Of a DNA stretch of 39,552 bases, positions 3,007 to 30,736 are shown in pieces. The notes beneath the pieces are model-generated. The model was not told where the DNA came from. It worked only from the letters and a program-made list of their open reading frames with translations, and did not search any database. Origin of the DNA: an uncultured Verrucomicrobiae bacterium (lineage in GTDB: Bacteria; Verrucomicrobiota; Verrucomicrobiia; Chthoniobacterales; UBA10450); assembly GCA_963726745.1 (NCBI GenBank), contig CAVSDR010000001.1, positions 1 to 39,552 of the forward strand, given 5' to 3'. A program made the translations under genes and the position numbers. Every line of letters begins with the position of its first letter. Position 1 is the stretch's first letter.

Positions 3007-6000
3007 ATGATTTCACTCGGCCTTGGTCGCGCTGTCTCGTCACGGATTGTTAGCCTTAGCTTCTGGCTTGCGGCGGCGGCTCCGCTTATGCCCGGTATTT
3101 TGTTCGGCCAGACGGACAAGGCTTACGTCGGTCCCTTCAATGGGAACTGGAATAATGCCGCAAACTGGAGCCCGGTTGGTGTCCCCGCTTCCGTCGACAA
3201 TGTCATCCTCGGCACCAATTCGACCACGTTTCAAAGCGGTCCCGCGGTCGTCGATTTCGATTATTCCTATGCTGGACAGACGTTGTCCAACCTGACACTG
3301 GACGCGACGGGGGTGAACAGTTCCATCACCTTGCGCCAGTCGTCCGCTGATTCAGCGATGGTCGCGCTGCAAGTGTACGTCGGCAACACCGTCGGCGGTA
3401 ATTTCTATACACAAAGTGCGGGGAGCTTTAACGCGCAGCTGTTTTTGGTCCTAGGGAATGAAGCGGGATCTTCAGGCGCTTACACGCTGACTGGCGGCAC
3501 CTTCGCTGCCAGCAACCTATACGTGAGTTTCAGTGGCAATGGAACTTTCACGCAGAGCGGTGGCACCATTACGATCCCAAGCTCAGTTGGTACCGGCAAC
3601 CTGTACGTAGGGTTCATTGGCAATGGAACTTTTACCCAGAGCGGCGGCACCAACACGATCTCAAATACTTTGTATCTGGCCGCCCAATCGGGGGCCGCAC
3701 ATGGAACTTATACGCTGAGCGGCACCGGCGTTCTTCGCGCCACTTCTGAACACGTGGGCGAGCAGGGGACCGGTATCTTCACGCAATCCGGCGGCACGCA
3801 CACGGTCTCGTCGATGTTTGAGGTTGGACAGGATAATGGCAGCGGAACCTTCAACCTCGATGGGGGCACTTTGGAGGTGCCGGCAATCTCCATCGGCGTC
3901 AGCGCGAAGGTCTCGCGCTTTAACTTCAACGGCGGCACTGTGCGCGCGCGAGCGAGTAACGCGAATTTCTACGACGTCGCCCCGCAAAATGTCGCGACTG
4001 CCGCAACCGTAAAAACCGGCGGCGCGATCTTCGACACGAATGGCTTCGACATCGGCGTGGCGCAGCCGTTGCTCCACGACACGGATTTGGGAAGCGCGGC
4101 CGATGGCGGGCTGGTGAAAAGAGGTCTTGGAACTCTGACCTTGAAAGGTGCGAACACCTACACCGGTCCGACCCACGTGGTGAATGGCACGGTGGCCGCT
4201 GGCATTGCGACGAATGCCTTTGGCAGCAAGTCGGCCGTGACGCTTGATAACACGGTGGGCGTCACCTTGGACCTCACTGGCTTCAATAACTCGATCGGCT
4301 CCCTCACTGGCGGCGGCGGCAATGGCGGCGGAGTAAGTCTCGGCGCGGCGACGCTGACCATCGGTGGCGATAACACCAGCCCCGCTGCTTATGCAGGCCT
4401 GATTAGTGGGACCGGCGGCGTGACCAAGACCGGCACTGGCACCCTTACACTCACAGGGTCGAATGCCTACAGCGGTAACACCGTAGTGACCACCGGCACC
4501 CTGCTGGTGGATAACCCACGTGGCTCAGCAACGGGAACAGGCGCGGTGTTTGTCCAGGGCTCGCAATTGCAAGGTGCGCCGCGGCCGACACTGACGGGCG
4601 GCGCAGGTGCGAGTAATGGCGGGAGTCTTACCATCTTCAAAACCTACGGCAGTGGTCGAGGGACCATCGCCGGGACTGTATCCCCCGTGCTGCACGGGAT
4701 GATCGCGCCCGGTAACAACGAAATAGGAACCCTCACGGTTGGCGGCCTCAACCTGGTCGGCACTTCGGATCTCAACTATGACATGTCCGCGACGGCGAAT
4801 GACGCCATTTTTGTCACCGGCACGAACGCTCTCACGATCAACGGCGGCACCATCTACCTCTACCAGGCAGGCACGACGAACAGCTTCGCCACGCCTGGGC
4901 TCTATTTCGTCCTGGCCTACAACGGCGCGCTGCAAGGTTCGGCCAGTAATCTCGTTGTGGGGAATCCCGTCGCAGGGTTTACCTACACGTTCGCGGATAA
5001 CGGGGCCGGCTCCGTAGTGCTAACCATCGCCCCGACTCCGACTCCGACTCCGACTCCGACTCCGACTCCGACTCCGACTCCGACTCCGACTCCGACTCCG
5101 ACTCCGACTCCGACGCCAACTCCGACGCCAACGCCAACGCCAACGCCAACGCCAACGCCAACGCCAACGCCAACGCCAACGCCAACGCCAACGCCAACGC
5201 CAACGCCAACGCCAACGCCAACGCCAACGCCAACGCCAACGCCAACGCCAACGCCAACCCCGACACCAACCCCGACACCAACCCCAACGACACCAACCCC
5301 GACACCAACCCCGACACCAACCCCGACACCAACCCCGACACCAACCCCGACACCAACCCCGACACCAACCCCGACACCAACCCCGACACCAACCCCGACA
5401 CCAACCCCGACACCAACCCCGACACCAACCCCGACACCAACCCCGACACCAACCCCGACACCAACCCCGACACCAACTCCGACTCCAACTCCCGTCCCGT
5501 CGCCGGTTCAGGTTGCTAATATGTCCACTCGCGGACGGGTCAGCTCAGGAGAGCAGGTCCTCATCGGAGGTTTCATCATCACTGGCAGCTCTCCGAAGGA
5601 AATCGTCCTGCGCGCTCTTGGGCCAAGCCTGCAGACAAAAGGCATCAGCGATCCGTTGCCTGACCCGGTCCTCGAATTACACGGAGGCGACGGCGCTCTT
5701 TTGCTGACGAATAATAACTGGGGCGACACTCAGGGAACTGAGATCACCGCCACCGGTCTCGCCCCGGCTGATCCGCGCGAAGCCGCAATCCTGTTCGAAG
5801 CGTCGCCCGGGACTTACACCGCGGTCGTGACAAGCCACACCGGCGAGAGCGGCGTGGGACTCATCGAAGCCTACGATCTTAATCCGACCTCGAAGTCGAA
5901 GCTCGCGAACATCAGCACCCGGGGCCTGGTGCAGACTGGCACGGATGTCCTCATCGGAGGCCTGATGTTAAATGGAACTGGCGGCACGGCGTCGGTCGTG

Positions 6001-6327
6001 GTGCGAGGCATCGGTCCATCCCTTGCCGCTGCCGGAGTAAAGAACCCGCTGGCCGACCCAACGCTCAAAGTCCACGACGGGAATGGTGCGCTCATCTTCG
6101 CGAACGACAATTGGCTGGATGACCCGGTGCAGGCTGCCCGGATCGCAGCTGCCGGCCTCTCGCCGACGAATAGGATGGAGTCAGCGATCATTGGAGATCT
6201 TCCGGCCGGGAACTACACCGTGGTCTTGAGCGGCCAGGCAGGAGCCACTGGGATCGGATTGGTTGAGATCTACACGCCGGTGGGACCGGCGGCTTCGTCT
6301 CGCGCGGACGTGACGGGAGCTAAGTAA
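3007..6327 (+). CDS. Large secreted adhesin-like protein: signal peptide, Gly/Thr-rich beta-helix with autotransporter-associated (PATR) repeats, long PT linker, two tandem C-terminal 'NxSTRG' domains
   Basis: Hydrophobic N-terminus; repeated [13 protein letters not shown]-like [24 protein letters not shown] and [23 protein letters not shown]; (PT)n; C-terminal repeats [17 protein letters not shown] and [17 protein letters not shown]. Confidence 0.85.
5032..5493 (+). repeat. Coding tandem repeat encoding (Pro-Thr)n in three blocks: CCGACT, CCAACG, then 12-bp CCAACCCCGACA
   Basis: Directly visible; one irregular unit near 5285 gives 'PTT'. Confidence 0.95.
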
Positions 6328-10907: not shown

Positions 10908-11694
10908 GGATTCGCTCCGCGCCGGCGTAGACGTTCATCGTTTGGCCGCGCAGGAAGCCGACGAGCGTTTGCCCGCTCTCGGTCGCGAACTCGACGGCTA
11001 AACTCGTAGGCGCGGAGATCGCGGCCACGATCGGGATGCCGGCGGCGAGCGCCTTTTGCATCATCTCGAAGGAAACGCGGCCGCTGAGCAAAAGCACGCG
11101 TCCGCGCAACGGAAGCGCGCCCTCGAGAAAAGCGCGGCCGATGATTTTATCCAGCGCATTGTGCCGGCCCACGTCTTCGCGCGCGACTTCCAGGTTGCCG
11201 TCTAAATCAAAGAGCGCACAGGCGTGGAGGCCGCCGGTGCGGGCAAAAGTTTCCTGCGCGGCGCGCAGCGCATCGGGCAGGCGAAACAACGTCTCCGCGG
11301 ACACGTGGCACCCGTCGGCAATGGCCGGAAAGCTTTGTTGCACCGCCGCGATCGTGGCCTTGCTGCAGATGCCGCAGCTTGAAGAGCTGAAGACATTCCG
11401 CGTGAGCTTTGCCGGATCGAAGGCGGCCGGATTGCGCAGGGTGACGTTAACCACCTGGTCGCCGGTCTCGCCGCATTGCGTGATCTCGAAAAGGTCGCGC
11501 GGATCGCGCAGCAGATTTTCCGTGAGGAGAAAACCAGCGGCGAGCTCGCGGTCGTGCCCCGGGGTGCGCATGAGCACGGCGACGCTCTGGCCTTCGACGC
11601 GCAATTCCAGCGGCGCTTCCGCGGCGACTTCATCCGGTTCACGGCGCGCGGCGCCGTCGGCGTGCAGGCGCAAAATCGAAATCGGCGAACTCAT
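10864..11694 (-). CDS. fdhD: Formate dehydrogenase accessory sulfurtransferase FdhD
   Basis: MRTPGHDRELAAGFL, SSCGICSK, FARTGGLHAC, REDVGRHNALDKIIG, SGRVSFEMMQK, SAPTSLAV, LVGFLR. Confidence 0.93.
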   Translation of the reverse strand: MSSPISILRLHADGAARREPDEVAAEAPLELRVEGQSVAVLMRTPGHDRELAAGFLLTENLLRDPRDLFEITQCGETGDQVVNVTLRNPAAFDPAKLTRNVFSSSSCGICSKATIAAVQQSFPAIADGCHVSAETLFRLPDALRAAQETFARTGGLHACALFDLDGNLEVAREDVGRHNALDKIIGRAFLEGALPLRGRVLLLSGRVSFEMMQKALAAGIPIVAAISAPTSLAVEFATESGQTLVGFLRGQTMNVYAGAERILTPTSAPARVASPP

Positions 11695-12246
11695 GGCAGA
11701 TCGGCGGGCGTGTTGAGATTGGTGAACAGCGGCGCCTCCTCCTCGGTGATGGGTTGCGCCCTAACGAGTCCTTCCAGGAGGCACTCGCGGACGAAGTGTT
11801 GCAGCGAGAGTTGGCCGGTAGCCAGCAACTTCTCCGCGAGCGGCCGTGAGCTTGCCGGGTAAACCGCGCAGAGCGGCTCGAAAAGATCCGTGCGCTGCGG
11901 GACCACACCCTCACCCCGGGCAAGCAAAGCTTGCAGATAATCCGCCCGCATCGCTGGCAGGTCGACCGCGAGCACGAGCAGCCGCGTCGTCTGCATGCGC
12001 CGCAGGCCGGCGACCAAACCGCCAAGCGGCCCACAACCCGGCAAAGCGTCGGCTAAAATTTCGTAGTCGCTCCATTCCGCCCGCGGCGGCCCGGCGAGGA
12101 AAAGCTCGACCGGCGCGAGCGCCTGGAGCAATGCGCATTGCCGCTGCCAGAGCGGCTGCGCCGTCGAACTCGAGGAAGGCCTTGTCGCGGCCCATGCGGC
12201 TCGACCTTCCGCCGGCGAGCAGGAGCGCGCTGAAGGCGGCGTTCAC
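11691..12246 (-). CDS. mobA: Molybdenum cofactor guanylyltransferase; frameshift near 12160
   Basis: LLAGGRSSRMGRDKAFL in one frame continues as QPLWQRQ...GPLGGLVAGL...LAVDLP...EPLCAVY after removing one G. Confidence 0.88.
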
Positions 12247-12722
12247 GCGAGGAGCGCAAGCTCGGCAACACCGGTGGTGAGCCAGCCATCCGAGAGAATC
12301 TCGGCGCGCAGACCACCCTTCCCTTTCAAGGCCTCGAAAGCGCCGGGGGCGAAGGCGGTGTCCATCCAGAAGCACGGCTTGCAGTGTTGCGTCCCGCGAA
12401 AGCGCACGCCCTGGAGCTCGAATTCTTTCCCGATCAAAGCCTGGAGATCGGCGCCGGAGACAAGGACGTTTCGGCGGAGCGCGCCGGCTGATTTCTCCAC
12501 GCCGGGAAATTGCGCCTGCAGCCACTCGAAAACCTCACGCGCGAAAAACGTGACCTGGCCCTGGTAGTCGTCCTTGAAATCAAAGAAGCGATCGCCGCGC
12601 AGGCCGCGGCCGGCGACGCACTCGACGCGCGCGACTTCCTCGAGCGGAAATTGATCCGGCTCGCGCCCGGCGTGGCCGAAGTAGTTGTGACCGGCCGAAA
12701 TGAAAATCTGGTGGATGATCAC
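12243..12722 (-). CDS. MOSC domain protein (molybdenum cofactor sulfur carrier-like)
   Basis: GRGLRGDRFF, LRRNVLVSG, HCKPCFWMD, GGLRAEILSDG; GTG start at 12722. Confidence 0.85.
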   Translation of the reverse strand: MIIHQIFISAGHNYFGHAGREPDQFPLEEVARVECVAGRGLRGDRFFDFKDDYQGQVTFFAREVFEWLQAQFPGVEKSAGALRRNVLVSGADLQALIGKEFELQGVRFRGTQHCKPCFWMDTAFAPGAFEALKGKGGLRAEILSDGWLTTGVAELALLA

Positions 12723-14549: not shown

Positions 14550-15095
14550 TTACTCGGACTGTGCGGCCAGCAGCTCGGCGTATTTCGCCTCGAGCTCGCG
14601 GTAGCGCTGCTCGGCCTCGGCCGCGGCGCGGCGTTCCTCGCGCAGCGCCTGCTCGAGGTCGCGGATGCGCTCCTGGACGGCGATCGACATCCCGGTGGAC
14701 CCGGGGCCGCTGATGAACTCCCCGGTTTGCTCAGCCTCATCCGCGGCTTCGAAAAGCGGCGCGAGGTCGGCGATTTTTTGCCGGGTGGCGTCGCAGGAAT
14801 TGATCACGCTGGTCTGCTCGTCGATCTCCTCCAGGCGAAGAAATTCCCGGATCGACCCGAGGGTGGTCGGGCCGTAAAGCCGCTCGCTCGTGACCTCGAC
14901 GATCCAATCCATTCCCAGCTCGGGGAGCATCGGCGCCTTGATCCAATGCTCCTGGTCGTGGGAGATGGAGTCGTTAGGCGCGACTTGTGCGGAAGAGGCC
15001 CAGCGGGTCAACTGGGCGAAAGGCATCGGCCCAAAGACACTGCCATCATGCTGTTTCCGGAGAAACCATTGATGGACTGCGGGAGACTCGATCAT
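14550..15095 (-). CDS. Hypothetical protein with two GYF_2/DUF4339-like motifs and a C-terminal coiled coil
   Basis: WFLRKQHDGSVFGPMPFAQL...W and WIVEVTSERLYGPTTLGSI repeats; C-terminal heptads. Start overlaps the LysM gene stop. Confidence 0.65.
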   Translation of the reverse strand: MIESPAVHQWFLRKQHDGSVFGPMPFAQLTRWASSAQVAPNDSISHDQEHWIKAPMLPELGMDWIVEVTSERLYGPTTLGSIREFLRLEEIDEQTSVINSCDATRQKIADLAPLFEAADEAEQTGEFISGPGSTGMSIAVQERIRDLEQALREERRAAAEAEQRYRELEAKYAELLAAQSE

Positions 15096-15571
15096 GGATT
15101 AGGCGACGGGCTGGGCGATGCGGACGCGCCCGGCGTGGGAATTTGAATCGTCTGGCCGATCTGGAGCGCGCGGTCGTTCTCGATGTGGTTAAAGCGCTGC
15201 AATTCCTGCACCCCCACTTTGTAGGCCTTGGCGATGGAAGTCAGCGTCTCGCCTTTCGCAACCACGTGGCTGTTGCCGCCGGAGACCGCCGGGGTCGCGC
15301 TCGCCGTGGCCGCGGCGGAGGCGGAAGCGGGCGCAGGCGTGCTTTCGCCGATCATCACGCCGGGACGTTGGCTCGTGAGCATCTGCTCGAGCTTCAGGAT
15401 TTGCTGGGAAAGCGCGTCGAGCTTCAGGTTTTGCTCGTCGATTTTCTTGGTCAATTCGGCGAGCGCCGCGGCCTCGGAGCGTCCTTCAGTGACGGCACTT
15501 TGCGCGGCGGCCATGGGGAGGGAGTTGAGCGCGAGCAGAACGAGGGCGGTGTGCGCCAGGAGCAACTTCAT
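15092..15571 (-). CDS. Secreted LysM peptidoglycan-binding protein with coiled coil
   Basis: Signal peptide MKLLLAHTALVLLAL; C-terminal HVVAKGETLTSIAKAYKVGVQELQRFNHIENDRALQIGQTIQIP. Confidence 0.88.
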   Translation of the reverse strand: MKLLLAHTALVLLALNSLPMAAAQSAVTEGRSEAAALAELTKKIDEQNLKLDALSQQILKLEQMLTSQRPGVMIGESTPAPASASAAATASATPAVSGGNSHVVAKGETLTSIAKAYKVGVQELQRFNHIENDRALQIGQTIQIPTPGASASPSPSPNP

Positions 15572-15667: not shown

Positions 15668-15841
15668 ATGCCAGAGCGGATCGAGAAACCGACGGTGCCG
15701 TGGGGCCCGAAGCAGGGCGGCGAGGGCGACGGGCCGAAGGCCCCGGACATCACCCGCCCGGACACGCGCGATCTTCTGAAGAAGATGCGGAAGGTGGATC
15801 CGAACCAGTCGAAGCGCTATCGCCAGCGCACCGGCCAGTGA
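15668..15841 (+). CDS. ubact: Prokaryotic ubiquitin-like protein UBact (57 aa; absent from the supplied ORF track)
   Basis: Manual translation MPERIEKPTVPWGPKQGGEGDGPKAPDITRPDTRDLLKKMRKVDPNQSKRYRQRTGQ*. C-terminal R-T-G-Q fits the UBact R[T/S]G[E/Q] motif; the stop overlaps the proteasome beta start (TGATG). Confidence 0.92.
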   Translation: MPERIEKPTVPWGPKQGGEGDGPKAPDITRPDTRDLLKKMRKVDPNQSKRYRQRTGQ

Positions 15842-16644
15842 TGGACCAGCCCGGGGTGGCGAGCGGTGCGGCGGATTTCGTCGCCTTGCTCCAACGCACG
15901 GGAAATCTCGGCCTAACGAGTCTTCCGACCACGGCTTCGCCCGCCGCGCTCCCACCACAGACGCAGGCGACCACCATCCTGGCGTTTAAGTTTTCCGGCG
16001 GCGTGCTTGTGGCCGGCGACCGGCGCGCCACTGCGGGCAATACCGTGGTCTACGATCGCGCCGACAAGGTGCTGGAGATCGACCGGCACTCGATCATGGC
16101 GATCGCGGGCGTGCCTGCGACCGCCTGGGAGATGGCGCGCGTGCTCGAGCATTCCTTCCAATTTTTCCGGCGCACCCAGCTCCAGGAGATGAGCGTGGAC
16201 GGCAAGGTGAGAGCGCTGTCTAAATTGCTGCGCGACAATTTTGGCTTCGTGATGCAGGGCGTGGGCGTGGTCGTGCCGATCTTCGCGACCTACGACGCCG
16301 CGGGTGAAGGCGGGGCGCGGCTTTACTTTTACGACGCCATGGGCGCGAATTTCGAGGTTGCTGAATATGCCGCCACCGGCTCCGGTTCACCCGCAGTCCG
16401 TGGTGTTCTCTATTACGAAAACCAATGGGGTCCAAAGCGGCTCGCGGAATTGGACCGCGACGAGGCGGTCACCCTCGCCCTGCGCGCACTCGACACCGCG
16501 GCGGAGGCGGACACGGCCACTGGCGGAGTCGATCGACACGGGAAAATTTTCCCGGTGCTGAAAGTGGTCGCGCGCGATGGCATCACAACATTGCCGGACG
16601 AGGAGATCTCGGCGCTCTTCGGGCGCGGAGTTGCTGGACGATGA
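15841..16644 (+). CDS. prcB: 20S proteasome beta subunit (43-aa propeptide)
   Basis: Mature chain starts TTILAFKFSGGVLVAGDRRATAGNTVVYDRADK with Thr1, Asp17 and Lys33 in register; TGSG and DTATGG motifs. Confidence 0.92.
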   Translation: MDQPGVASGAADFVALLQRTGNLGLTSLPTTASPAALPPQTQATTILAFKFSGGVLVAGDRRATAGNTVVYDRADKVLEIDRHSIMAIAGVPATAWEMARVLEHSFQFFRRTQLQEMSVDGKVRALSKLLRDNFGFVMQGVGVVVPIFATYDAAGEGGARLYFYDAMGANFEVAEYAATGSGSPAVRGVLYYENQWGPKRLAELDRDEAVTLALRALDTAAEADTATGGVDRHGKIFPVLKVVARDGITTLPDEEISALFGRGVAGR

Positions 16645-17403
16645 CCGAGGAGCCGTATCGCTGGGTAGAAGCGGTGGCGAACCGCCGGGAATACATCGAG
16701 ACGCAGCTCGCGGAAGGGCAGCCGATCGTAGCCCTCGCCTGCGCGGAGGGAGTCCTCCTGGTCACGCTCGGGAGCACGCGGCAGAAGTTGTTTGAAATCT
16801 ACGATCGCATCGCCCTCGGTGCGATCGGGCATCCGGGCGACATCGAGCGGCTCCGCATGGCGGCGATCGAGCTCGCGAGCACGGAGGGTTTCACCCGCTC
16901 GGCCGCGGATGTGTCGCTCCGGCGGCTGGCCTACTACTCGCTCAGCCCGATGCTCAAGGGCGCCTTCGAGCAAATCTACGGCGCGCCTTTTCTCGCGCGG
17001 ATGCTCTTTGTCGAAATCGGCGAGCGCGCGGAAAACGATCTTTTCCTGCGGGTGGAATACGACGGCGCGATCGCGACCAATGGCGCCACGATTTCGGAAA
17101 GCCGGCAGGAGTTCGGGGTTTTAAGCGGCACTTTCGCCTCTGCGGAAATGATGGAGACGTTTCTCCGGCGCGAGCACCAAGCGTCCGCGCCGCTGAAGGA
17201 TGCGCTGCAAACCGCGATCAACGCCTGGACCGTCGGGAAGCATGGCCCTCGCCGAAAACAGCGCGCGCGAACTCCCGGCTGCGGAAACGATCGCCGCGCG
17301 GCGGCGGGAACAGCAGGGCGCGGTCGAAGCGGTCCTGCTCGAGCGACACGCGCGCAGCGCGCTCTGCTACCGTCCGCTGACGCCGGCAGAGATTGCTGCC
17401 TAA
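16641..17403 (+). CDS. prcA: 20S proteasome alpha subunit; frameshift near 17240
   Basis: MTEEPYRW...RREYIETQLAEGQPIVAL...GVLLV...KLFEIYDRIALGAIGHPGDIERLR...SAADVSLRRL; C-terminus SMALAE...VEAVLLER...YRPL lies in another frame ending at 17403. Confidence 0.88.
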
Positions 17404-17416
17404 CGAGTGCTGCCCC

Positions 17417-18206
17417 ATGCCTCCTGGAACTCCCACGGTCAGCGCGCCTTTCCGGCGCTGGTTGCCTTGGCTCGGGCTCGGGTTGATGGCGGTTTCCTCT
17501 CGCCTGGCTGCAACTCGTGCCGCCCCGCGCGCGCACCACCGCGGCCACCGCCGACGCGCGCGATTCGCGAAGCCTCGCGCGGGTGGTGATCGATGCCGGG
17601 CACGGTGGAAAGGATTCCGGCGCGATCCGGCGCGGAGTGCAGGAAAAAGATCTCACGCTCGACGTGGCCCAGCGGGTGGAGCGCCTGCTCCAAACCAAAG
17701 GGTTGGACACGATCATGACTCGGAGCCGCGACGATCGCGTCTCGCTGGCAGCGCGCGCGGCCCTGGCGAATCGCGCGCGCGATTGCGTCTTCGTGAGCAT
17801 CCACTTTGACGAAGGGGCACGCGCCAGCGCCACGGGCGTGCAAACCTTCTACGCCGCGCGCCAGGCGCAGGACTCGATCATCCCCAGCTGGCTGCCGTTC
17901 CTCCAGCCGGCGGCTTCGGCGGAGCCAGGCACGCGCAGCCAAAGCCTCGCCGGCTTTGTGCAGGAGGCGCTCGTTAGGCAAACCGAAGCGGTCAATCGCG
18001 GAACGCGCGCGGAGCAATTCTACGTGGTCGCAAACGTGCGGCACCCCGCGATTCTGGTCGAGGGCGGGTTTCTTTCAAACGACGCCGATCTCGGCAAGCT
18101 GACCGACCCGGTCTATCGCGAACAGCTGGCCGTGGCGATTGCCGACGGCATCCTGCGCTACGCTGCCGCCACAGCCGTGCCAGCCATGGTCGCCCGGGCT
18201 GAATAG
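17417..18206 (+). CDS. N-acetylmuramoyl-L-alanine amidase (Amidase_3); probable frameshift near 17500-17520 between membrane anchor and catalytic domain
   Basis: VVIDAGHGGKDSGA, EKDLTLDVA, MTRSRD, FVSIHFD, PAILVEGGFLSN; upstream frame has hydrophobic RRWLPWLGLGLMAV. Confidence 0.85.
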
Positions 18207-18239
18207 CGTGTCGCCGCCGGCGTCCAAAAACAAAACCAC

Positions 18240-18978
18240 ATGATGAAACAAGCGCTTCTCCCCCTGCTGGCCGCGTGCCTCCTCCTGCCCGCGAGCGTGC
18301 GCGCCGATGCCGTCCTCTCGACCGTGCAGCAAAAACTCAAGGACCAGGGCTTTTATTACGGCGAGATCAGCGGGCAAAAAGATACCGACACGACCGCGGC
18401 CATCCGGCGCTATCAAATTCGGAACGGCCTCCAGATTACCGGCGAATTGAATGCGGAAACGCAGAAGTCGTTAGGGGTGAAAGGCGCCGTAGCCAGCGCC
18501 CCGCCCCCGGCGGCCACGCCCGCGCGAGTCGCGCCGCCAGCACCGCCCCGGCCCGCCCCACGACCGGAGGAAACCGCGAACCTGCAGGCGCCGGCTCCCC
18601 GCGGTTTCGAGGAAACGACCGCGCCTAACGAGAGCCGGATGACGCTGTCTATTTTTGCCGGCACGCCCTACGAGGGAGCGCCGGCGGAGGTGCAGCAACG
18701 CGTGGTCGTGGGCACGCAGGTGCTCCTGTCGCGCCAGGGACTTTATCGCAGTGGAATTGACGGCAGCTTCGGGCCCGGGACGGCCTTCGCGCTTGCGAGC
18801 CTTCCAGGCGCGCCTCGGGATGGAAGCGAACGGCCGCCTCGACCTGCCCACCCTGGCCGCGCTCGGTCTGCTCCCGGGCCAGCAGTCGCCCGGGATGGTG
18901 GTTCCGCGGCGCGGGAACAGCGTGCGCCGCCCGCTGCGGTATGCGCCCACTGGCGAGCCGGTTTACCAGGGTCGCTAG
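18240..18978 (+). CDS. Secreted peptidoglycan-binding protein (two PG_binding_1 domains); frameshift near 18795
   Basis: Signal peptide; VQQKLKDQGFYYGEISG...TTAAIRRYQIRNGLQITGELNAETQKSLG; second domain QVLLSRQGLYRSGIDGSFGPGT|LRAFQARLGMEANGRLDLPTLAALGL. Confidence 0.85.
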
Positions 18979-18987
18979 GCTGCCGGA

Positions 18988-19818
18988 TCAGGGCTTGGCC
19001 ACGCCGCCCTCGAACTGGACCGACTGCAATTCCAGAAACACAGTCCCCAGGAAGATTTGCGACTCCGCGCGCAGGATGAGGCGGTCGTTGTCGTCCGAGA
19101 GCCAGGCGGTGGCCTGCTTGAATTTCTTGTGCGGCTGGAGCACGTGCTGGTCATTTATCTTCTGCAACTGCACGTCGACCTTGATCGCCGGAAAGGTGCC
19201 CAAGGGCACGGTGATTTGCTCCCGGCCCAGCACCGTCACGGTGCAGAGGTAACCGGTCGTTTGGGGATAAACGACCACGCGTTCGACCGCGCCTTGAGCC
19301 AGCGGTTTCGAACGCAGGTAGAGGAGCGCCGAGCTAAGGCTCATGGTGTCTGGCAGAGTGAAGCTGCGGGTCTTATCCTTCGATTGCCCGTTCTTTTCCT
19401 CCAGCCGCCGACTGGTCGCGCCCTGCGGGGTGAAAGTAATTTCAGTCGTTAGGCGCTTGTTTCGCGCGCGCTCCACTTCCCGCACCTGGATGGGGCGCAG
19501 GGTGCGTGGCTCCGCCGTGCTCCGGTGCTCGACCTCGAATTTCCAAAGCTTGCGCGCCAGCCCTTCGGTGCGGCCGGTGGCCTCGAGTTGCAAAAGTCCC
19601 TCGGCGGTGCGCGAAAAGCGCAGTTCCGCGGTCGCGGCGGTGACTCCGTTCCAGCCGAAATTGTAGTGCGCCCGCGCGGGCCGCAGCTCCGGAAAATTGC
19701 CGGGCGCATACGGGCCGAGGGTGGCGCGCCATTCTTCGCCGGCGCGGAGCCCGCCCAGACCGGCGCACGCGAGCGCGAGGACGAGGAGGAGGCAGGCGGA
19801 GAATTTGCGGGACAACAT
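18988..19818 (-). CDS. Secreted DUF3108-like protein
   Basis: Signal peptide; HYNFGWNGVTAATAEL, LSSALLYLRS, GREQITVPLGTFPAIKV, WLSDDNDRLILR. Confidence 0.7.
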   Translation of the reverse strand: MLSRKFSACLLLVLALACAGLGGLRAGEEWRATLGPYAPGNFPELRPARAHYNFGWNGVTAATAELRFSRTAEGLLQLEATGRTEGLARKLWKFEVEHRSTAEPRTLRPIQVREVERARNKRLTTEITFTPQGATSRRLEEKNGQSKDKTRSFTLPDTMSLSSALLYLRSKPLAQGAVERVVVYPQTTGYLCTVTVLGREQITVPLGTFPAIKVDVQLQKINDQHVLQPHKKFKQATAWLSDDNDRLILRAESQIFLGTVFLELQSVQFEGGVAKP

Positions 19819-19928: not shown

Positions 19929-20573
19929 TTAGGGCTTCTTGGCCGGGGCGGGCGTGCTGCTGGCGGCGGCCGAGGCGGCCGGCGAAGCATCGGCGGTCGA
20001 GACCCGGCCGGGCTTGTTGAGCACGGCGACGATGTCGTTGGTGAATTCCATCGGCTCGCGCGAATACATCAGGACGGGGACGCCATTAAGGCTCATGCCG
20101 CTTTTGTCGAAGACGAGGTCGAGGTTATTAGCCTTCACTTTGTCCATCACGATGTCGGTGATTTCCTTGACGATACCTTCACGCATGCGGAGCGCCTGCT
20201 CCTGCAACTGACGCTCGCGCGTCTGGCGGAATTCGTTGATCTCGCGCTCCATGTTCTTGATGTTCGCGATCTTTTCGTCGCGCTCTTTGGCCTTCTGCGT
20301 CTTCGCATCGGCGCTCAAGGTTGGGCCTTCGAGCTGCTTGTTGAGATTGTTGATCTCGTCCAGCGCCTTCTTGTAAGACTCGGCGCGATCCTCGTATTCC
20401 TTGCGCGCGGCGTCCTTGGCCTGGTTGATCTTGGCCTCGGCGTCCTTGGTCTTGTTATATTCTTTGAAGGCCATGTTCATGTCGACCGTGCCGACTTTCA
20501 GATTGCCCTGAGCATAGCTCGCGAGCGGAAGGGCAATCGAGGCGAGGACGGCGACAGTAAGGAACTTTTTCAT
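19929..20573 (-). CDS. skp: OmpH/Skp periplasmic chaperone
   Basis: Signal peptide, KVGTVDMNMAFKEY, long coiled coil, NLDLVFDKS, FTNDIVAVLN; lies downstream of bamA. Confidence 0.9.
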   Translation of the reverse strand: MKKFLTVAVLASIALPLASYAQGNLKVGTVDMNMAFKEYNKTKDAEAKINQAKDAARKEYEDRAESYKKALDEINNLNKQLEGPTLSADAKTQKAKERDEKIANIKNMEREINEFRQTRERQLQEQALRMREGIVKEITDIVMDKVKANNLDLVFDKSGMSLNGVPVLMYSREPMEFTNDIVAVLNKPGRVSTADASPAASAAASSTPAPAKKP

Positions 20574-20620
20574 AAACGGGTAATTAAGAGAGGGTATAGA
20601 CCGCAGGGTTGTCGGTTCGT

Positions 20621-22927
20621 TCAAAATTGATAACCGACATTGAAATTGAAGCGGCCGGAGCTGCTGTTATTTCCGCCAGTCTGAACCGGGAAGCCGTAAT
20701 CAATACGGATTGGTCCGATTGGCAAGTCCAGACGCAGCCCGATGCCGACGTCGGACGCGAGGCGTCCGCCAAGATCAAAGGCATTCGGATCGACGAAACC
20801 GGCGTCGGAAAAGACCGCGCCGCGCACCTTCTCGATGATCGGGAAAGTCAACTCCACGGTCATGCGCGCAAGGGTGCGGCCGCCGATGGGCTCGCCGTTG
20901 GCGTCCTTCGGTCCGACATCGCGGAAGTTGAAGCCGCGGAGGTTATTTGCGCCACCGAGGAAGAGGCGGTCGAAGAGGGGCACGTTCTTGGCCGAGCCCC
21001 AGGTGTCGATCGTCGCCAGCTCGCCGTTGACCAGCACGATGAGGTCGTAAGGCAGCGGGATGTATTGCGACATTTCCAGATCGCCGCCGAAGGTTTGCGT
21101 ACTTCCACCGAGGAAGCCGCCGGCGATGAAGGGCGTGAAGACGATGCGCTGGCCGCGGCGGGAAAGGAAGGGATTGTCGCGCGTGTCGAGCAGGAGCTGA
21201 GTCGAAACCTGGCTCTTGGTGCGGGAACCGGCCTCAATCTTGATCAACGAAGAGGCGTCCTGCGAGACGTTGAAAATGTCCACGTCTTCCAGGCGATACT
21301 CCACGCTGGCGGACATGAAGCGGCCGATGCCGCGGCGGGCCACGACGGAGAAGCCGTAGTTCCGCTGGTCGTAGATCGAGCTGAGGAAGTTTGCCTCGCG
21401 GTAGTAGGCTTCGCCGCCTAACGAGAGCTGGCGATCGAGGAAATACGGCTCGGTGAGCGAGACGACAAAGTCTTTCCGCTGCGAGCCAAACTGCACGCGG
21501 GCGCGGAATTTCTGGCCGCCGCCGGTGAAGTTCGGCCAGTTCATCAGGTCGAAGTTGCCCTGCGTCAGCTCGATGAAACCGATCACGCTATCGATCGTGC
21601 TGAAGCCGGCGCCGAAGTTGAGCGAGCCGGTGCGCTTCTCGTCCACCTGCACGACCAGGTCCTTGCGGCCGGCCACGCCGGTGTCTTCCGGGAACGTCTC
21701 GACGCGCGAGAAATAGCCGAGATTCTCCAGGCGCTTCTTGCTTGTTTCCACGCGAGTGGTGCTGAAGACATCGCCGGGTGCGATCAAAACCTCGCGGCGA
21801 ATGACCTTATCCTTCGTGCGGGTGTTGCCGATGATGTTGACCCGTTGCACGAACGAGCGCGTGCCTTCCTCGATCTGGTAATTGATGTCGATCTTGCCCG
21901 GGCCGCTCGGCACCCCTTGCGGCTGGACCACGAGGTCGACGTAGCCGCCGCTGCCGTAGCCGTCCGCGATGCGCTTGGCGTCTTCGCGAATCTGTTTGGG
22001 CGAATAAGGATCGCCTTCCTTCATCTTGATCAGGAGGCGGACCTTGTCGGCGGGCGCGACCTTGGTGCCTTTGATCACGATTCGGCCCACGTGATACTGC
22101 GGCCCTTCATTGATCGCCACGATCAGGATCATCCGGCCGCCCTGGCGCTCGCGGCGGGTGTCCTTCACCTCGACGTCGATGTAGCCCTTGTTCTGGTAAA
22201 ACTCGCGCACCGCGTCCACGTCTTGTTGCAATTGGACCTCGTCGAGTCGGCCGGATTTATCGAGGAAAGAGATGAGCGTTTTGCCCTTGGTCTTCATCTG
22301 CTTGCGCAGGATGTAATCGCTGAACGCGCGGTTGCCCTCGAAGCGAATCCGGCTGATCGCGCCCTTCTGGCCTTCGTTGATCGTGTAGACTACGCGCGAA
22401 GTGCCGCGCGCTTCGTTCGTCTCCACGCGATACTGCACGTCGACGTCGTTGAAGCCTTTCGCGCGATAGGCATCGATGATCTCCTGCTTGCCTTTCCCGA
22501 GCGCGTCTTCGTCCAGCGGCGCGTTCGGTTTCGCGCCGATTTTCTTGCGCAGAAATTTAGCCGACAATTTGGTCGCGCCGTTGATCTCGATCTCGTGCAC
22601 GAGCGCGCGCGTCTGCACGGCCACGATCACCCGCACGCCTTCACCGGTGGGCTGGCCGAAGATGCGGACGTTCTGCACCTGGCCGGTGTTGTAGAGATTC
22701 TTGATGTCCTGCTCGACGATGTTGTCGGAATAATTCTGCCCCACCTTCGTGCGCATCTGCGCGAGGATGCGGTCGCGGCTGATCGTTTCCGGACCAGTGT
22801 ATTGCACCTCGATCGACCGGATGGTCATGCCGCTGTTCTGCGCCGAGAGGGGCGAAAGTGGGAGCAGCGCCAACAGCAGAGTGCAAAGGGCCAGGAGGCT
22901 GCGAACGGGACCAACGGAGCTTTTCAT
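20621..22927 (-). CDS. bamA: Outer membrane protein assembly factor BamA
   Basis: POTRA domains (GNTRTKDKVIRREV, RLENLGYFS), TGSLNFGAGFS, LRGF (VRGF-type motif), PIGPIRIDYG, terminal Phe. Confidence 0.95.
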   Translation of the reverse strand: MKSSVGPVRSLLALCTLLLALLPLSPLSAQNSGMTIRSIEVQYTGPETISRDRILAQMRTKVGQNYSDNIVEQDIKNLYNTGQVQNVRIFGQPTGEGVRVIVAVQTRALVHEIEINGATKLSAKFLRKKIGAKPNAPLDEDALGKGKQEIIDAYRAKGFNDVDVQYRVETNEARGTSRVVYTINEGQKGAISRIRFEGNRAFSDYILRKQMKTKGKTLISFLDKSGRLDEVQLQQDVDAVREFYQNKGYIDVEVKDTRRERQGGRMILIVAINEGPQYHVGRIVIKGTKVAPADKVRLLIKMKEGDPYSPKQIREDAKRIADGYGSGGYVDLVVQPQGVPSGPGKIDINYQIEEGTRSFVQRVNIIGNTRTKDKVIRREVLIAPGDVFSTTRVETSKKRLENLGYFSRVETFPEDTGVAGRKDLVVQVDEKRTGSLNFGAGFSTIDSVIGFIELTQGNFDLMNWPNFTGGGQKFRARVQFGSQRKDFVVSLTEPYFLDRQLSLGGEAYYREANFLSSIYDQRNYGFSVVARRGIGRFMSASVEYRLEDVDIFNVSQDASSLIKIEAGSRTKSQVSTQLLLDTRDNPFLSRRGQRIVFTPFIAGGFLGGSTQTFGGDLEMSQYIPLPYDLIVLVNGELATIDTWGSAKNVPLFDRLFLGGANNLRGFNFRDVGPKDANGEPIGGRTLARMTVELTFPIIEKVRGAVFSDAGFVDPNAFDLGGRLASDVGIGLRLDLPIGPIRIDYGFPVQTGGNNSSSGRFNFNVGYQF

Positions 22928-23064: not shown

Positions 23065-24140
23065 CTAATTCAAGAGTTGATACCAATTATTCCGGCGGCG
23101 CGGCTCGTAGCCGGCCTCGCGGATCAGGCGCTCGATGTCCCCGGCGGTCAGGCGAAACGTCGTGCCTGCGCTGCTGACCACGTTCTCCTCCATCATCACC
23201 GAGCCGAAATCATTTGCCCCGTAGCGCAGCGCGATCTGGCCAATGTCGGGCCCCTGCGTGACCCAGGAGCTTTGCACGTTTGGGAAATTATCCAGGAAGA
23301 TGCGCGCGAGCGCCTGCATCCGGAGATACTCGGCCACGCCGGCGCGTTGCTTGATTTTCAAGACCGTGTTTTCCGGCTGGAAGGTCCAGCAAATGAACGC
23401 GGTGAAGCCGCCGCTCGCATCCTGCTGGTCGCGCAACCGCTGCAAATGCTCGATCCGGTCCTCGATCGTCTCCACATGGCCGAACATCATCGTCGCGCTC
23501 GAGTTCAGGCCGAGCTCATGCGCGATCTGCATCACCTCGAGCCATTGGTCGGAGTTGCACTTCAAGGGCGAGATCCGGTTGCGCACCCGATCGACCAGAA
23601 TCTCCCCGCCGCCGCCCGGGATCGAGCCCAGGCCTGCGGCCTTGAACTCGCTGATTATTTCCCGCAGCGATCGCCCGAAGACCTTCCCGAAATGCTGGAA
23701 CTCCGGCGGGCTGAATCCGTGGATGTTGATGTGCGGATACTTCGTCGCGGATATGCCGCAGGAGATTGAGATACCACTCGAAGTCCAAGCTTCGGATGAT
23801 GCCCGCCCTGCATCAAAATTTGCACCCCACCGACTGCGGTCAGCTCGTCGAGCTTCTGGTCGAGTTCCTCAAAGCTCAACACGTAATGATCGGCATCCTT
23901 TTCCGTGCGGTAGAACGCGCAGAACTTGCAGTAGACATTGCAGACGTTGGTGTAGTTGATGTTCCGGTCGACGATATAGGTTACGGTTTCGTCCGGCACC
24001 GCGGCGCGGCGCCGCGCATCCGCGAGTGCGCCCAGCTCGGCCAGCGGCCAGCGATAAAGCTCGAGCGCGTCGGCCGCGGAAATGCGTTCGCCCGCGAGCA
24101 CGCGCTCGCTCAAAGTTTGTTCCGTCGCCAGGGCTACCAT
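23065..24140 (-). CDS. mqnC: Cyclic dehypoxanthinyl futalosine synthase (radical SAM); two frameshifts (~23785, ~23745)
   Basis: YIVDRNINYTNVCNVYCKFCAF (CxxxCxxC), LMQGGHHP, SIPGGGGEIL, ATMMFGHVE, VQSSWVTQG, GANDFGSVMMEENVV across three frames. Confidence 0.9.
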
Positions 24141-24203: not shown

Positions 24204-25106
24204 CTATTTTCGCAGGAGGTCGTGCTTGGCGGCGAACTCCAGGAGCGCGTCATTGAACTTCTGCGGCTCGTCGATCATCAGGAAATGCGAGACGCCGCTC
24301 CAGACTCGGTAGTCCAGATTGGGGCAAAGCGAATGCGCGAATTCTTCATACTCCGCGGTCCAGGCCGGCTGCTTTGCCATTAGCATCAACACCGGCACCT
24401 CGATCCGGTCGGGCTTCCACAAGTCCGCCTCCTGCATACTTTCCATCTCGCTCACGGCCACGTTCTGCGCACCGCGCTGCATCATCGCCCGCACCTGTGC
24501 GCGCGCATGCTCGTCCTTCATCGGTTCGGTCATCCCGTCGACAAATCGTCTCACCGTCGCGGCGTACTCCGGACCGCGCAGCGGCGCGATAAATCGCTCC
24601 ATCATCGCCGCATCGCCAAACGGCCGCAGCGCCCCATCCACGATCACCAGCGCGCGCACCTTCGCCGGAAAACGTCGGAGAAATTGCCGGATCACCGGCG
24701 TGCCGTTGCTGTGGCCCACGAGGATCGCAGCGGTCACGCCCGCATCGCGCAGGACCGCGTCGAGCGCCTCCGCCTGCCGATCCATGGTATAGTTCACCGA
24801 CGGCCGATCGCTTTCGCCGTGGCCCAGGAGGTCGACCGTGAGCACGCGCGCCTTTTCCGTGAGCGCGAGGATTTGGCGCGTCCAAACGCTCTCGTCGCAG
24901 TTCCAGCCGTGCACCAGCACGAAGGCCACCGGGCCTTCCCCATGGCTGCTGTAGTGCACCTTGGCGCCCTCAAACGCGGCGAACCGCGAGACCCGCGGCA
25001 CGCTCGCGGACGCGACCTCCCCGAGGCAAAAGAACAGCGCCGCCACCAGCCGAAGTTTTCCTTTCGACACGCTCGCGAGGTTATGGTTCCGCTCAGGCGC
25101 GTGCAA
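24204..25106 (-). CDS. Secreted alpha/beta hydrolase (start uncertain)
   Basis: LVHGW, DLLGHGES, nucleophile elbow GHSNG, C-terminal SHFLMIDEP; N-terminal hydrophobic segment. Confidence 0.88.
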   Translation of the reverse strand: MHAPERNHNLASVSKGKLRLVAALFFCLGEVASASVPRVSRFAAFEGAKVHYSSHGEGPVAFVLVHGWNCDESVWTRQILALTEKARVLTVDLLGHGESDRPSVNYTMDRQAEALDAVLRDAGVTAAILVGHSNGTPVIRQFLRRFPAKVRALVIVDGALRPFGDAAMMERFIAPLRGPEYAATVRRFVDGMTEPMKDEHARAQVRAMMQRGAQNVAVSEMESMQEADLWKPDRIEVPVLMLMAKQPAWTAEYEEFAHSLCPNLDYRVWSGVSHFLMIDEPQKFNDALLEFAAKHDLLRK

Positions 25107-26057
25107 TTCGAAAGCGGAAGCGAGATCGCGGTCATCGGCGCCGGCGTGGCCGGGCTCACCTGCGGCATCTTGCTGGCTAAAGCCGGCGCGCGCGTGCGGC
25201 TCTACGCGGAGGAAACCGGCGCACGCACTACTTCCGCCGCGGCCGGCGCGATCTGGTTTCCCTACGATGTCGAGCCGCTCGAGCGCGTCCTCCCCTGGGC
25301 GCTCGCGACCTTTGAAACACTCCGTGGCCTTGCGCGCGTGCCGGGCACCGGCGTGCGCTTGCTCGAGCTGCGCTGCTTTGCCCGCGCGGGCGAAATCGCA
25401 GTGCCTTCGTGGGCCAGGCAGCTCGGAGCGCGCTGCCTAACGAGCAGTGACTGCGCGCTTCACGGCTTCGCCAGCGGCTACGCGCTCGAGGTGCCGATGA
25501 TCGATACCGGGATCTACCTCGCCTGGCTGACGGATGAACTCCTGGCCGCCGGCGGAAGGATCGAGGGCGGCATCCGCTTCGCGCGGCTCGAGGAGGTCCC
25601 GCGGAAACATCCGCTCCTCGTGAACTGCGCCGGCGTGGGCGCGCGCGAACTGGTGCCCGATCGCGAGGTCGAGCCGCACCGCGGCCAGGTCGTGCTGGTC
25701 GCAAAATACCCGCTCGCTTACGCGATCGTCTGCGACGATCCGCCGTTGATGTACGCCTTCCCGCGCACGCACGATTGCGTCCTCGGCGGAACCAACGAGC
25801 TCAGTGCCGACCGCACCCCGCGCCCGGCCGAGCGCGCTTCTATATTAGAAGCGTGCGCGCAGGTCCTGCGCTGGCCGGCACCGCCGGCAATCCTCGGAGA
25901 ACGCGTGGGGCTGCGGCCCTTCCGCCGGACCGGCGTGCGGCTGGAGCGCGCGTCGTTAGGCGATGGCCGCGCGGTGATCCACAACTACGGCCACGGCGGC
26001 TGCGGCTTTACCCTCTCGTGGGGTTGCGCCGCCGAGGCGGTTGAACTTGCCGGCTAA
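25101..26057 (+). CDS. D-amino acid oxidase-like FAD-dependent oxidoreductase
   Basis: IAVIGAGVAGL, TTSAAAGAIW, VNCAGVGAR, PHRGQV, GLRPFR, IHNYGHGGCGFTLSWGCA (DAO signature). Confidence 0.9.
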   Translation: MQFESGSEIAVIGAGVAGLTCGILLAKAGARVRLYAEETGARTTSAAAGAIWFPYDVEPLERVLPWALATFETLRGLARVPGTGVRLLELRCFARAGEIAVPSWARQLGARCLTSSDCALHGFASGYALEVPMIDTGIYLAWLTDELLAAGGRIEGGIRFARLEEVPRKHPLLVNCAGVGARELVPDREVEPHRGQVVLVAKYPLAYAIVCDDPPLMYAFPRTHDCVLGGTNELSADRTPRPAERASILEACAQVLRWPAPPAILGERVGLRPFRRTGVRLERASLGDGRAVIHNYGHGGCGFTLSWGCAAEAVELAG

Positions 26058-29347: not shown

Positions 29348-30643
29348 TCAGGCACGGAATTCCTCCGGCGCGAGCGTGCCGGAAGTCACGCCTTCTGGCG
29401 GGACGACATCCGTCTCGTGAGGCGCCGTCGCGCGCGGGATCGCCGGGCGCCGCGCGATCCGCGTGGCCAGGAGCATGGAGAGGAAAAGCAGCGCGCCGGC
29501 GAGATACCAAGGCGCTCCGGGCACGTGCCAGCGGCGCGCCGGATTGATAAAATAAGCGAAGGTAAACGTGAACAACCCCGGCCCGAAAAGCACCGCGAGC
29601 GAGCGCAGACTGCTGATCGCACCCTGCAATTCCCCCTGCTCCTGCTCGCGCACCCGATGGGTCATCATCCCCTGCGCCGCCGGCCCGGAGATGCCCCAAA
29701 GCGAGAGCACCGGGATCGAGGCCAGGAGCATCGGCCCGCTGCGCGCGAGCCCGGCCAGCACCATCCCGATGGCGCCAAAAAGCTGTCCGTAATAAAGTGT
29801 CCGCCGCTCGCCCAGCCAGGCGACGATCCGCCCCACGAAGAAGCCGGAGACAATCACCGACATCGCGCCAAAAACCGCCAGCGAGAGGCCGATCATCCCC
29901 GTGCTCCAGGTGTAGCGATAGATCGAGTAAAGCGCCCAGACGGTGAAAGCCTCGTGCGCCAGGTAGCCGATGAATTGCACCGCCGCGAGATGAAACAACT
30001 CCGGATGCGACCGGAGCAAAACCAGCGAGCCGACCGGATTCGCGCGGCGAAAAGTAAAGGCCTGGCGCTTCTCCAGCGCGAGCGATTCCGGAACGAAGAA
30101 GTAGCTGTAGATTGCATTCGTTAGGCTCAACCCGCCGGCGACCCAGAACGGCAGCCGCGGATCGGCGTTGCCCAGGAGCCCGCCGAGCGCCGGCCCGAGG
30201 ATGAAGCCCACCCCGAAGGCCGCGCCGACCAATCCGAAGGCGCGGGCGCGTTGCTCCGGCGCGACCACATCGGAGATGTAGGCCATCGCCGTGCTGATGC
30301 TCGCGGCGGTGATGCCCGCGAGCACCCGGCCGAGAAAGAGCCAGCCGATGGTTGGCGCGAGCGCCATCACCAGGTAATCCAGGCCCAGGCCGAGATTAGA
30401 CAGCAGGATGATCGGCCGGCGCCCGAAGCGATCCGAGAGGACGCCCAGGACCGGCGAAAAAATGAACTGCATGAGCGCGAAGACGGTCCCGAAAATGCCG
30501 AACCATTTCGCCGCCGAGGTGGAATCGCCCCCGAGGAAATCGAGCACCAGCCGCGGCAGGACAGGCGCGATCAAGCCGAGCGCGAGCATGTCGAGCGCGA
30601 CCGTGACCAGGACGAAAAAGACCGCTGCCTTGCGTGCGCGCAT
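29348..30643 (-). CDS. TCR/Tet-family MFS efflux transporter
   Basis: Motif A GVLSDRFGRRP, GRVLAGIT, GFILGPALGG, EQGELQGA; multiple TM helices. Confidence 0.9.
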   Translation of the reverse strand: MRARKAAVFFVLVTVALDMLALGLIAPVLPRLVLDFLGGDSTSAAKWFGIFGTVFALMQFIFSPVLGVLSDRFGRRPIILLSNLGLGLDYLVMALAPTIGWLFLGRVLAGITAASISTAMAYISDVVAPEQRARAFGLVGAAFGVGFILGPALGGLLGNADPRLPFWVAGGLSLTNAIYSYFFVPESLALEKRQAFTFRRANPVGSLVLLRSHPELFHLAAVQFIGYLAHEAFTVWALYSIYRYTWSTGMIGLSLAVFGAMSVIVSGFFVGRIVAWLGERRTLYYGQLFGAIGMVLAGLARSGPMLLASIPVLSLWGISGPAAQGMMTHRVREQEQGELQGAISSLRSLAVLFGPGLFTFTFAYFINPARRWHVPGAPWYLAGALLFLSMLLATRIARRPAIPRATAPHETDVVPPEGVTSGTLAPEEFRA

Positions 30644-30736
30644 CTCCCGCGAATGAACAGCTGCATCGCGCCGCCGCAATCCAGCGTGCGCGTTAATTCC
30701 CGTCGCGCCGCTGGGATTTCGCGCTCATCGTTTCGC

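Follow-up and report, generated by a model that had tools for sequence, protein, structure and literature searches.

A UBact conjugation-proteasome system of Gram-negative phyla was reportedly described by Lehmann, Udasin, Livneh, and Ciechanover in 2017 (BBRC 483:946). In the sections of the open literature cited here, Pup-like tags and PafA homologues are described in Verrucomicrobia and Nitrospirae (PMC2588565), the armatimonadete-nitrospira-verrucomicrobial alpha and beta subunits are set apart as a Gram-negative proteasome subcluster (PMC5666114), all proteasome components are reported for Candidatus Udaeobacter copiosus (bioRxiv 10.1101/053942), and UBact is named once (PMC11354881). Here, we analyze a ubact-prcB-prcA operon at positions 15668 to 17403 of contig CAVSDR010000001.1 from an uncultured Verrucomicrobiae bacterium (assembly GCA_963726745.1), the first 39,552 nucleotides of which constitute the window referred to below. 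The surprise implied by an initial annotation of this DNA, that a proteasome and a Pup-like tag should occur together in a diderm bacterium, is not supported, since PMC2588565, PMC5666114, and bioRxiv 10.1101/053942 already have the combination in print. The operon is a real and already described gene set (Iyer 2008; Brewer 2016; Fuchs 2017; Lehmann 2017). We propose that it is the core of a six-gene UBact-proteasome system, encoded at three loci, that works by a pupylation-like mechanism, and we give this reading a probability of roughly 78%. The one fresh point is a pattern in the tail of the ATPase and the pocket of the alpha subunit that emerges from sequence comparison alone and that, in our view, matters more than the operon itself. 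The features of the system that concern us here are as follows.

15668..15841, + strand: ubact, precursor of a 57-residue tag ending RTGQ, with profile matches to NF033388 and PF20513
15841..16644, + strand: prcB, 20S proteasome beta subunit, 267 residues (PF00227, 105 bits)
16641..17403, + strand: prcA, 20S proteasome alpha subunit, about 253 residues if read through (TIGR03691, 83.9 bits, under the cut-off)
17235..17239, + strand: a single additional base within the short GGGAA run, which puts prcA out of frame, located by DNA alignment with eight relatives; a probable assembly error
Contig C2, about 366276-367690 (L002, L003): pafA-like gene, the second gene of the Pup-ligase family, split by one extra base

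The 57-residue product of the open reading frame (ORF) at 15668-15841 (+) is UBact. Its translation ends YRQRTGQ, and the last base of its TGA stop codon, at 15841, is also the A of the prcB ATG (a 1-nt overlap), just as the initial annotation had described. The profile search against the UBact and Pup families by which that annotation proposed to check its reading bears it out: the ORF scores 84.2 bits against the NF033388 UBact model of NCBIfam (cut-off 35) and 79.6 bits against PF20513 of Pfam (cut-off 27.8). Because the UBact model matched nothing in any of 14 control genomes, we do not regard the match as chance. No Pup family was listed for the ORF at E<=0.1 and no PDB sequence matched it at E<=10, and on these results we reject a Pup identity for the tag. 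The RTGQ end agrees with R[TS]G[EQ], which we take to be the UBact family motif, and all 30 UBact homologues examined end RTG[EQ], the very motif that our script looked for. Among these homologues, 23 end GQ and seven end GE, and this coexistence fits the presence of a deamidase. The word "unannotated" in the initial annotation holds for the ORF track used at the time but not otherwise, given that the family has models in both NCBIfam and Pfam.

The two proteasome genes follow directly. The beta subunit scores 172.8 against TIGR03690, below the cut-off of 191.9, and is similar to a solved beta subunit at E 1.5e-29. Its propeptide is 43 residues long, which places Thr1 at residue 44 (codon 15970-15972), and in an alignment to solved structures its Asp17 and Lys33 are in register with those of the Rhodococcus and Mycobacterium beta subunits. 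The intact Thr1/Asp17/Lys33 noted in the initial annotation is thus confirmed, as is the ATGA overlap between the prcB stop and the prcA start (16641-16644). Over residues 1-196, PrcA is 63-79% identical to intact relatives; after the break, conserved alpha sequence resumes in the +1 frame and continues to the stop at 17403. A comparison of prcB with the plasmid collection gave no match. A search for sigma-70-like promoters found none, and terminator-like sites numbered one against 1.9 expected by chance. No RNA data set was listed as containing this DNA.

The source genome (94.7% complete, seven contigs) holds the other genes of the system at loci apart from this operon, the three loci lying on contigs C1, C2, and C3. 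The ATPase gene arc lies directly upstream of dop at C3:335154-338396. Dop has an intact frame and scores 513.4 against TIGR03688 (cut-off 492.3). ARC scores 452.8, under its cut-off of 504.75, and matches Mpa at E 1.6e-101; its nearest named relatives (70-86% identity) are mostly labelled Chthoniobacterales, Spartobacteria, Udaeobacter, or Verrucomicrobiota, which assigns the host to Chthoniobacterales. We had also considered that the operon might be an orphan, which the arc-dop pair on C3 and the pafA-like gene on C2 rule out. A search of the source genome for Bpa/PafE (PF10759) gave no match, an uninformative result because the search had no positive control that responded.

We surveyed 40 relatives, 24 of the same genus and 16 from other families of the order, including two unpublished genomes (G001, G008) on which, taken by themselves, none of our conclusions rests. 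UBact was present in 24/24 same-genus genomes, the Pup-ligase family in 23/24, and ARC in 22/24 (E<=1e-60). The same five of the 16 other genomes carried all three, and all three were absent from the remaining 11. In a phylum-wide draw of 151 Verrucomicrobiota genomes, eight matched the alpha-subunit model, one of them weakly. The split into three loci is typical of this order, and an intact arc-dop-ubact-prcB-prcA-pafA operon occurs in G170, a genome of the same class, and at the metagenome loci L252 and L286. These two loci are Nitrospira-like, and the L252 alpha subunit shares 84% identity with a protein named Nitrospira sp. A marine operon (L233:8614-13596) has the order arc-dop-prcA-prcB-pafA, with alpha before beta; in the gap between dop and prcA, the one gap inspected there, no tag ORF was found, and a 25-codon ORF in it resembles the N terminus of prcB. 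In genome G005, extra fragments of the Pup-ligase family lie about 7 kb from dop (C12:321178-321499), in addition to a multiply broken pafA-like gene on its contig C2.

The initial annotation proposed a functional tag-and-degrade system, and a working system is also our best reading. The sequences establish the genes, the families to which they belong, their co-occurrence, and the catalytic residues of the beta subunit; the biochemical steps that we infer by analogy with pupylation, as the most likely mechanism, are as follows. Dop would deamidate the terminal Gln of UBact to Glu, a step that the RTGQ end needs if the tag works like Pup. The PafA-like enzyme, using ATP, would join the tag Glu to lysines of target proteins. 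The ARC hexamer would then bind the tag via its N-terminal coiled coil, unfold the target, and dock on the alpha ring, and the target would be cut at the Thr1 sites of the beta rings while Dop recycles the tag.

Docking is where the sequences depart from the textbook arrangement. In the sections cited, the mycobacterial ATPase docks via a C-terminal GQYL, whose tyrosine contacts Arg26 or Glu119 of the alpha subunit, whose carboxylate contacts Lys52, and whose glycine backbone contacts Asp144 and Ser146 (PMC9599533); GQYL is needed for gate opening in mycobacteria (PMC12288473, PMC8142254), and proteasomal ATPases are said to bind chiefly through the penultimate tyrosine (PMC8755798). The source-genome ARC ends SGII. 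A [VI][IV] end was found in 10/10 translated relatives, in G170 and G078, and in all three metagenome ARC loci that were translated (of 80). Of the 80 loci in the search that gave the nearest ARC relatives, we aligned the source ARC with the 44 whose match reached the last residue, and all 23 displayed rows end [VI][IV]; five of the other 36 loci, read as a selection check, do so as well. These sets overlap and are kin rather than independent samples. The last two residues are conserved behind a linker that varies in both length and sequence. We also translated 18 of 150 ARC-like representatives. Six of them, which carry the signature GPEILNMW, end SGVI, RNVI, SQAI, RTIE, RSII, and SQII, so that none has a tyrosine and two break the strict [VI][IV] pattern. 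The other twelve comprise five tyrosine tails (GQYL three times, GHYF, and RQYL), one NII, and six tails with no pattern. Two ARC-like proteins deserve separate mention: P0002 (894 residues) shows two regions of ARC similarity, which could reflect a fusion or a read-through, and P0022 ends GQYL and has in its cluster a fragment named Candidatus Tectomicrobia, making it a possible non-actinobacterial control. We found no description of a UBact-type ARC tail lacking the tyrosine in the passages of the open literature consulted. Two reviews searched by term (PMC12288473, PMC8223512) gave no mention of the Gram-negative phyla concerned, and the sections of PMC5666114 and bioRxiv 10.1101/053942 consulted hold no discussion of the ATPase tail or the alpha pocket.

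The alpha pocket differs from that of Mycobacterium tuberculosis (Mtb) at the positions that meet the tyrosine. In the window PrcA, Gln22 stands for Mtb Gly23, Glu25 for Arg26, Lys49 for Lys52, Leu118 for Glu119, Asp141 for Asp144, and Ala143 for Ser146. We compared 19 intact alpha subunits from four lineages, ranging from Chthoniobacterales to the Nitrospira-like loci. Lys49 and Asp141 are invariant (19/19), and Arg is never found at position 25 (0/19) nor Glu at position 118 (0/19), where Leu occurs 15 times, Ile three times, and Val once. Position 22 is Gln in 17 sequences, Lys in one, and Arg in one. In 60 Nitrospira-like homologues (60 of at least 120 listed), Gln22, Lys49, Ile118, and Asp141 are invariant and Gln25 is nearly so. 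The tyrosine-type pockets used for comparison were two actinobacterial ones. According to the sections cited, neither the R26A nor the K52A variant supports PafE-driven degradation, and Arg26 is called conserved in prokaryotes (bioRxiv 10.1101/249060). A complex prediction for two PrcA subunits and a 32-residue ARC tail (the G013 pair) scored 0.02 with an uncertain partner fold, and we do not use it as evidence.

Judging from these alignments, the contacts to the terminus and the backbone are kept, and those to the tyrosine are lost along with the tyrosine itself. The simplest reading suggested by tail and pocket together is a co-adapted docking pair that dispenses with the GQYL/HbYX tyrosine. 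ARC would insert its Val/Ile-Val/Ile C terminus, Lys49 (Mtb Lys52) would hold the carboxylate, and the side chains of the tail would pack on a pocket made apolar by the change of Glu119 to Leu, Ile, or Val and by the loss of Arg26; Gln22 may fill the space of the missing tyrosine. Whether such a tyrosine-free docking code, with the lysine kept and the two tyrosine-binding residues, essential in mycobacteria, replaced, extends across Gram-negative phyla we put at even odds.

The PafA-like enzyme is the component whose family placement is least clear-cut. Its intact G013 copy reaches 309.9 against the Dop model and 307.5 against the PafA model (TIGR03686, cut-off 551.3), under the cut-off in both cases. 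In the Dop-loop region this copy is about 24 residues shorter than solved Dop, and its alpha-loop differs from that of solved Dop. We label the gene PafA because of this shorter Dop-loop region and its position in the operon. Two alpha-loop threonines are conserved in both Dop and PafA (PMC7947786, in the section cited). The PafA-like enzymes of the UBact type (that of the source genome on C2, L107:2927-4234, and the last operon gene in L213, L233, L252, and L286) match the Dop and PafA models with equal scores, contain neither of these threonines, and have EPL[AS]D in place of the EPHAD of Dop. The ligase chemistry of UBact-type enzymes may be different from that of actinobacterial PafA.

Two of the six genes are interrupted in the source assembly. 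At 17235-17239, prcA has one base more than 8/8 aligned relatives, and the pafA-like gene on C2 likewise carries one extra base, near 367220. To estimate the background of such breaks, we compared the source genome with the ORFs in 400 kb of five relatives that are assembled in many contigs. A frame change in the source genome affects 24 of the 164 conserved genes, with 31 events in 63,824 aligned residues. In a check of 17 of the 24 against NCBIfam, the family match spans the break in 11 (purB, ahcY, nrdJ, ppdK, pyrR, a PcrA-like helicase, DNA ligase, pilT, and three more); of the other broken genes checked, one was equivocal and four had no family at E<=1e-60. At this background rate, 1.0 breaks are expected in six system genes and the probability of two or more is 0.28, values that false positives inflate slightly. 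Split dop/pafA matches occur in 7/10 genomes with <=30 contigs and in 0/19 with >=60 contigs, a trend that would be expected of long-read assemblies. Among the 26 loci displayed, from 27 submitted, prcA could be called with a strict motif in 17; 16 of these calls are 256-264 residues long, and the remaining one stops at 179 and belongs to a 20-contig genome. In the window itself, mobA (11691-12525), a peptidoglycan-binding gene (18240-18978), and an mqnC-like gene (23065-23586) also seem to be frame-split, matching the indel background. Because 24/164 conserved genes are frameshifted genome-wide, purB and ahcY among them, we read the breaks in prcA and pafA as most likely assembly errors; the possibility raised in the initial annotation, that the prcA frameshift is real and the proteasome dead, is in our view improbable.

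The genes that flank the operon are listed below.

15092..15571, - strand: LysM protein (PF01476), divergent upstream neighbour, outside the system
17517..18206, + strand: N-acetylmuramoyl-L-alanine amidase (Amidase_3; PF01520, 174 bits), co-directional, not shown to belong to the system
19929..20624, - strand: skp (PF03938), convergent neighbour, outside the system
20621..22927, - strand: bamA (TIGR03303, 535 bits), convergent neighbour, outside the system

A gene for a GYF_2-domain protein with a coiled-coil-like tail (14550-15095, -) overlaps the LysM gene and lies upstream of, and divergent from, ubact. After the amidase gene comes the peptidoglycan-binding gene, on the same strand as prcA (17517-19079 for both). 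Elsewhere in the window, a major facilitator superfamily transporter (29348-30679, -) resembles the efflux pumps Tet(A)/(B)/(C) at 321 bits, under the cut-off of 475; it has a homologue in a relative and is probably a resident transporter. Long ORFs at 3007-6327 (+), 24507-26057 (+), 34675-38076 (-), and 38024-39523 (-) gave no NCBIfam family at E<=1e-15, and some may be shadow frames.

Several observations count against an intact six-gene system with adapted docking. The ligase identity of the PafA-like enzyme is uncertain: among solved structures the G013 enzyme is nearer to Dop than to PafA, and it lacks both alpha-loop threonines as well as the His of EPHAD. Lys24 is near-invariant in the Nitrospira-like alpha subunits and could replace Arg26 there. 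The frameshift background contains at least one false positive (metK), and the reciprocal control (11/177) is confounded, 8/11 being the same source-broken genes seen from the other side. Neither break is bridged by a read or contig (for 17235-17239, three DNA runs with small word shares gave no listed contig across it), which makes "error" a statistical call. Finally, the loss of GQYL also fits an ATPase that has ceased to work for the proteasome. On this last account, tagging would no longer be coupled to the proteasome: UBact with Dop, the ligase, and ARC would tag targets and unfold or disassemble them, the 20S particle would act alone or with another activator, and the ARC tail would pack on the beta-grasp domain or serve as a degron or an adaptor-binding end. 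Tagging without proteasomal degradation has a precedent in Corynebacterium, which lacks a proteasome. We saw no UBact-type ARC with a penultimate Tyr, the sections cited give GQYL as required in mycobacteria (PMC12288473, PMC8142254), Arg26, essential there, is missing in 19/19 alpha subunits, and arc and prcAB are unlinked in Chthoniobacterales. Yet ubact overlaps prcB, the genes for ARC, the tag, and the 20S particle occur together and form a single operon in G170, L252, and L286, and the equivalents of Lys52 and Asp144 are invariant in both alpha-subunit sets (19/19; 60/60). The final two ARC residues are moreover kept behind a variable linker, which is how a docking terminus behaves, and several ARC representatives outside the UBact-type clade have unpatterned tails instead. 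We consider the uncoupled arrangement unlikely.

The interrupted genes could also mean that the system is decaying in this strain, with real frameshifts in prcA and pafA, a proteasome unable to assemble, and ligation lost. That two of six genes are broken, that reads do not cover the breaks, and that most of the Verrucomicrobiota searched are without the system (prcA in 8/151, one weak), so that loss does occur, would all fit. We nevertheless think decay improbable, and somewhat more so than uncoupling, as both genes are interrupted just once, by one base, with conserved flanks and no further stops, the break rate of housekeeping genes predicts such an outcome, three more genes of the window look split, and the copies in relatives are intact. 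Least probable of all, to the point of being barely credible, is a system specialised for envelope biogenesis and tied to bamA, skp, and the cell-wall amidase. The initial annotation placed bamA and skp about 2.5-5.5 kb away; the distances and the diderm host, for whose envelope the two genes are markers, stand, but a functional link does not. Within the genus, bamA lies 5-7 kb from ubact in 14/24 genomes, with one unlinked (G014) and nine not judgeable, and the amidase directly follows the operon in 18/24 and in 1/5 of the other genomes (G030). Outside the genus, bamA is linked to ubact in 0/5 genomes, and on this, with the convergent orientation, we reject the functional link; the bamA/skp neighbourhood is genus-level synteny. 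In G170, the neighbours are instead orotidine decarboxylase-like and signal recognition particle-like genes (labels from reading translations). Bam and Skp moreover work beyond the inner membrane, and the tag and the proteasome are located in the cytoplasm.

We retain the UBact-proteasome system as described. With this operon, one further genome joins a catalogued system that is carried by very abundant soil bacteria and has apparently had no bench tests so far; we found no bench work on UBact in the passages of the open literature consulted. The tail and the pocket carry further. If the proposed docking is correct, none of the six ATPase tails that meet the 20S particle would carry HbYX/GQYL, and the ATPase-20S pair would probably be orthogonal to actinobacterial activators. 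A lineage without the tail tyrosine and Arg26 would either open the gate another way or have uncoupled tagging from degradation, and either outcome would inform how the gate is opened.

The proteasome reported for Candidatus Udaeobacter copiosus comes from the same order of soil bacteria (bioRxiv 10.1101/053942, in the section cited). With the UBact system in general, the source genome shares a tag that exceeds both family cut-offs and has the R[TS]G[EQ] end, the placement of the tag directly before prcB-prcA, and homologues of Dop, the PafA-like enzyme, and ARC; it differs in having its genes at three loci rather than in one operon and in the one-base breaks in prcA and pafA. With the actinobacterial Pup-proteasome, it shares homologous beta, alpha, ARC, and Dop proteins, Thr1/Asp17/Lys33, the terminal G[EQ], and alpha Lys52 and Asp144. 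Unlike that system, its tag has no detectable similarity to Pup, its ARC ends SGII rather than GQYL, its alpha subunit has Glu for Arg26, Leu for Glu119, and Gln for Gly23, its PafA-like enzyme gets equal scores from the Dop and PafA models and has a distinctive alpha-loop, and its prcA, prcB, arc, and pafA do not reach the NCBIfam cut-offs. The activator PA26 also has no HbYX motif; it needs no ATP and acts through a separate activation loop, the pocket being unchanged. The PA26/11S activators resemble the arrangement proposed here in that their C-terminal carboxylate is bound by the conserved alpha lysine (bioRxiv 10.1101/249060, in the section cited), a precedent for docking without HbYX. 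They differ in that the activator is here an AAA+ ATPase, and that both it and its pocket appear to have changed.

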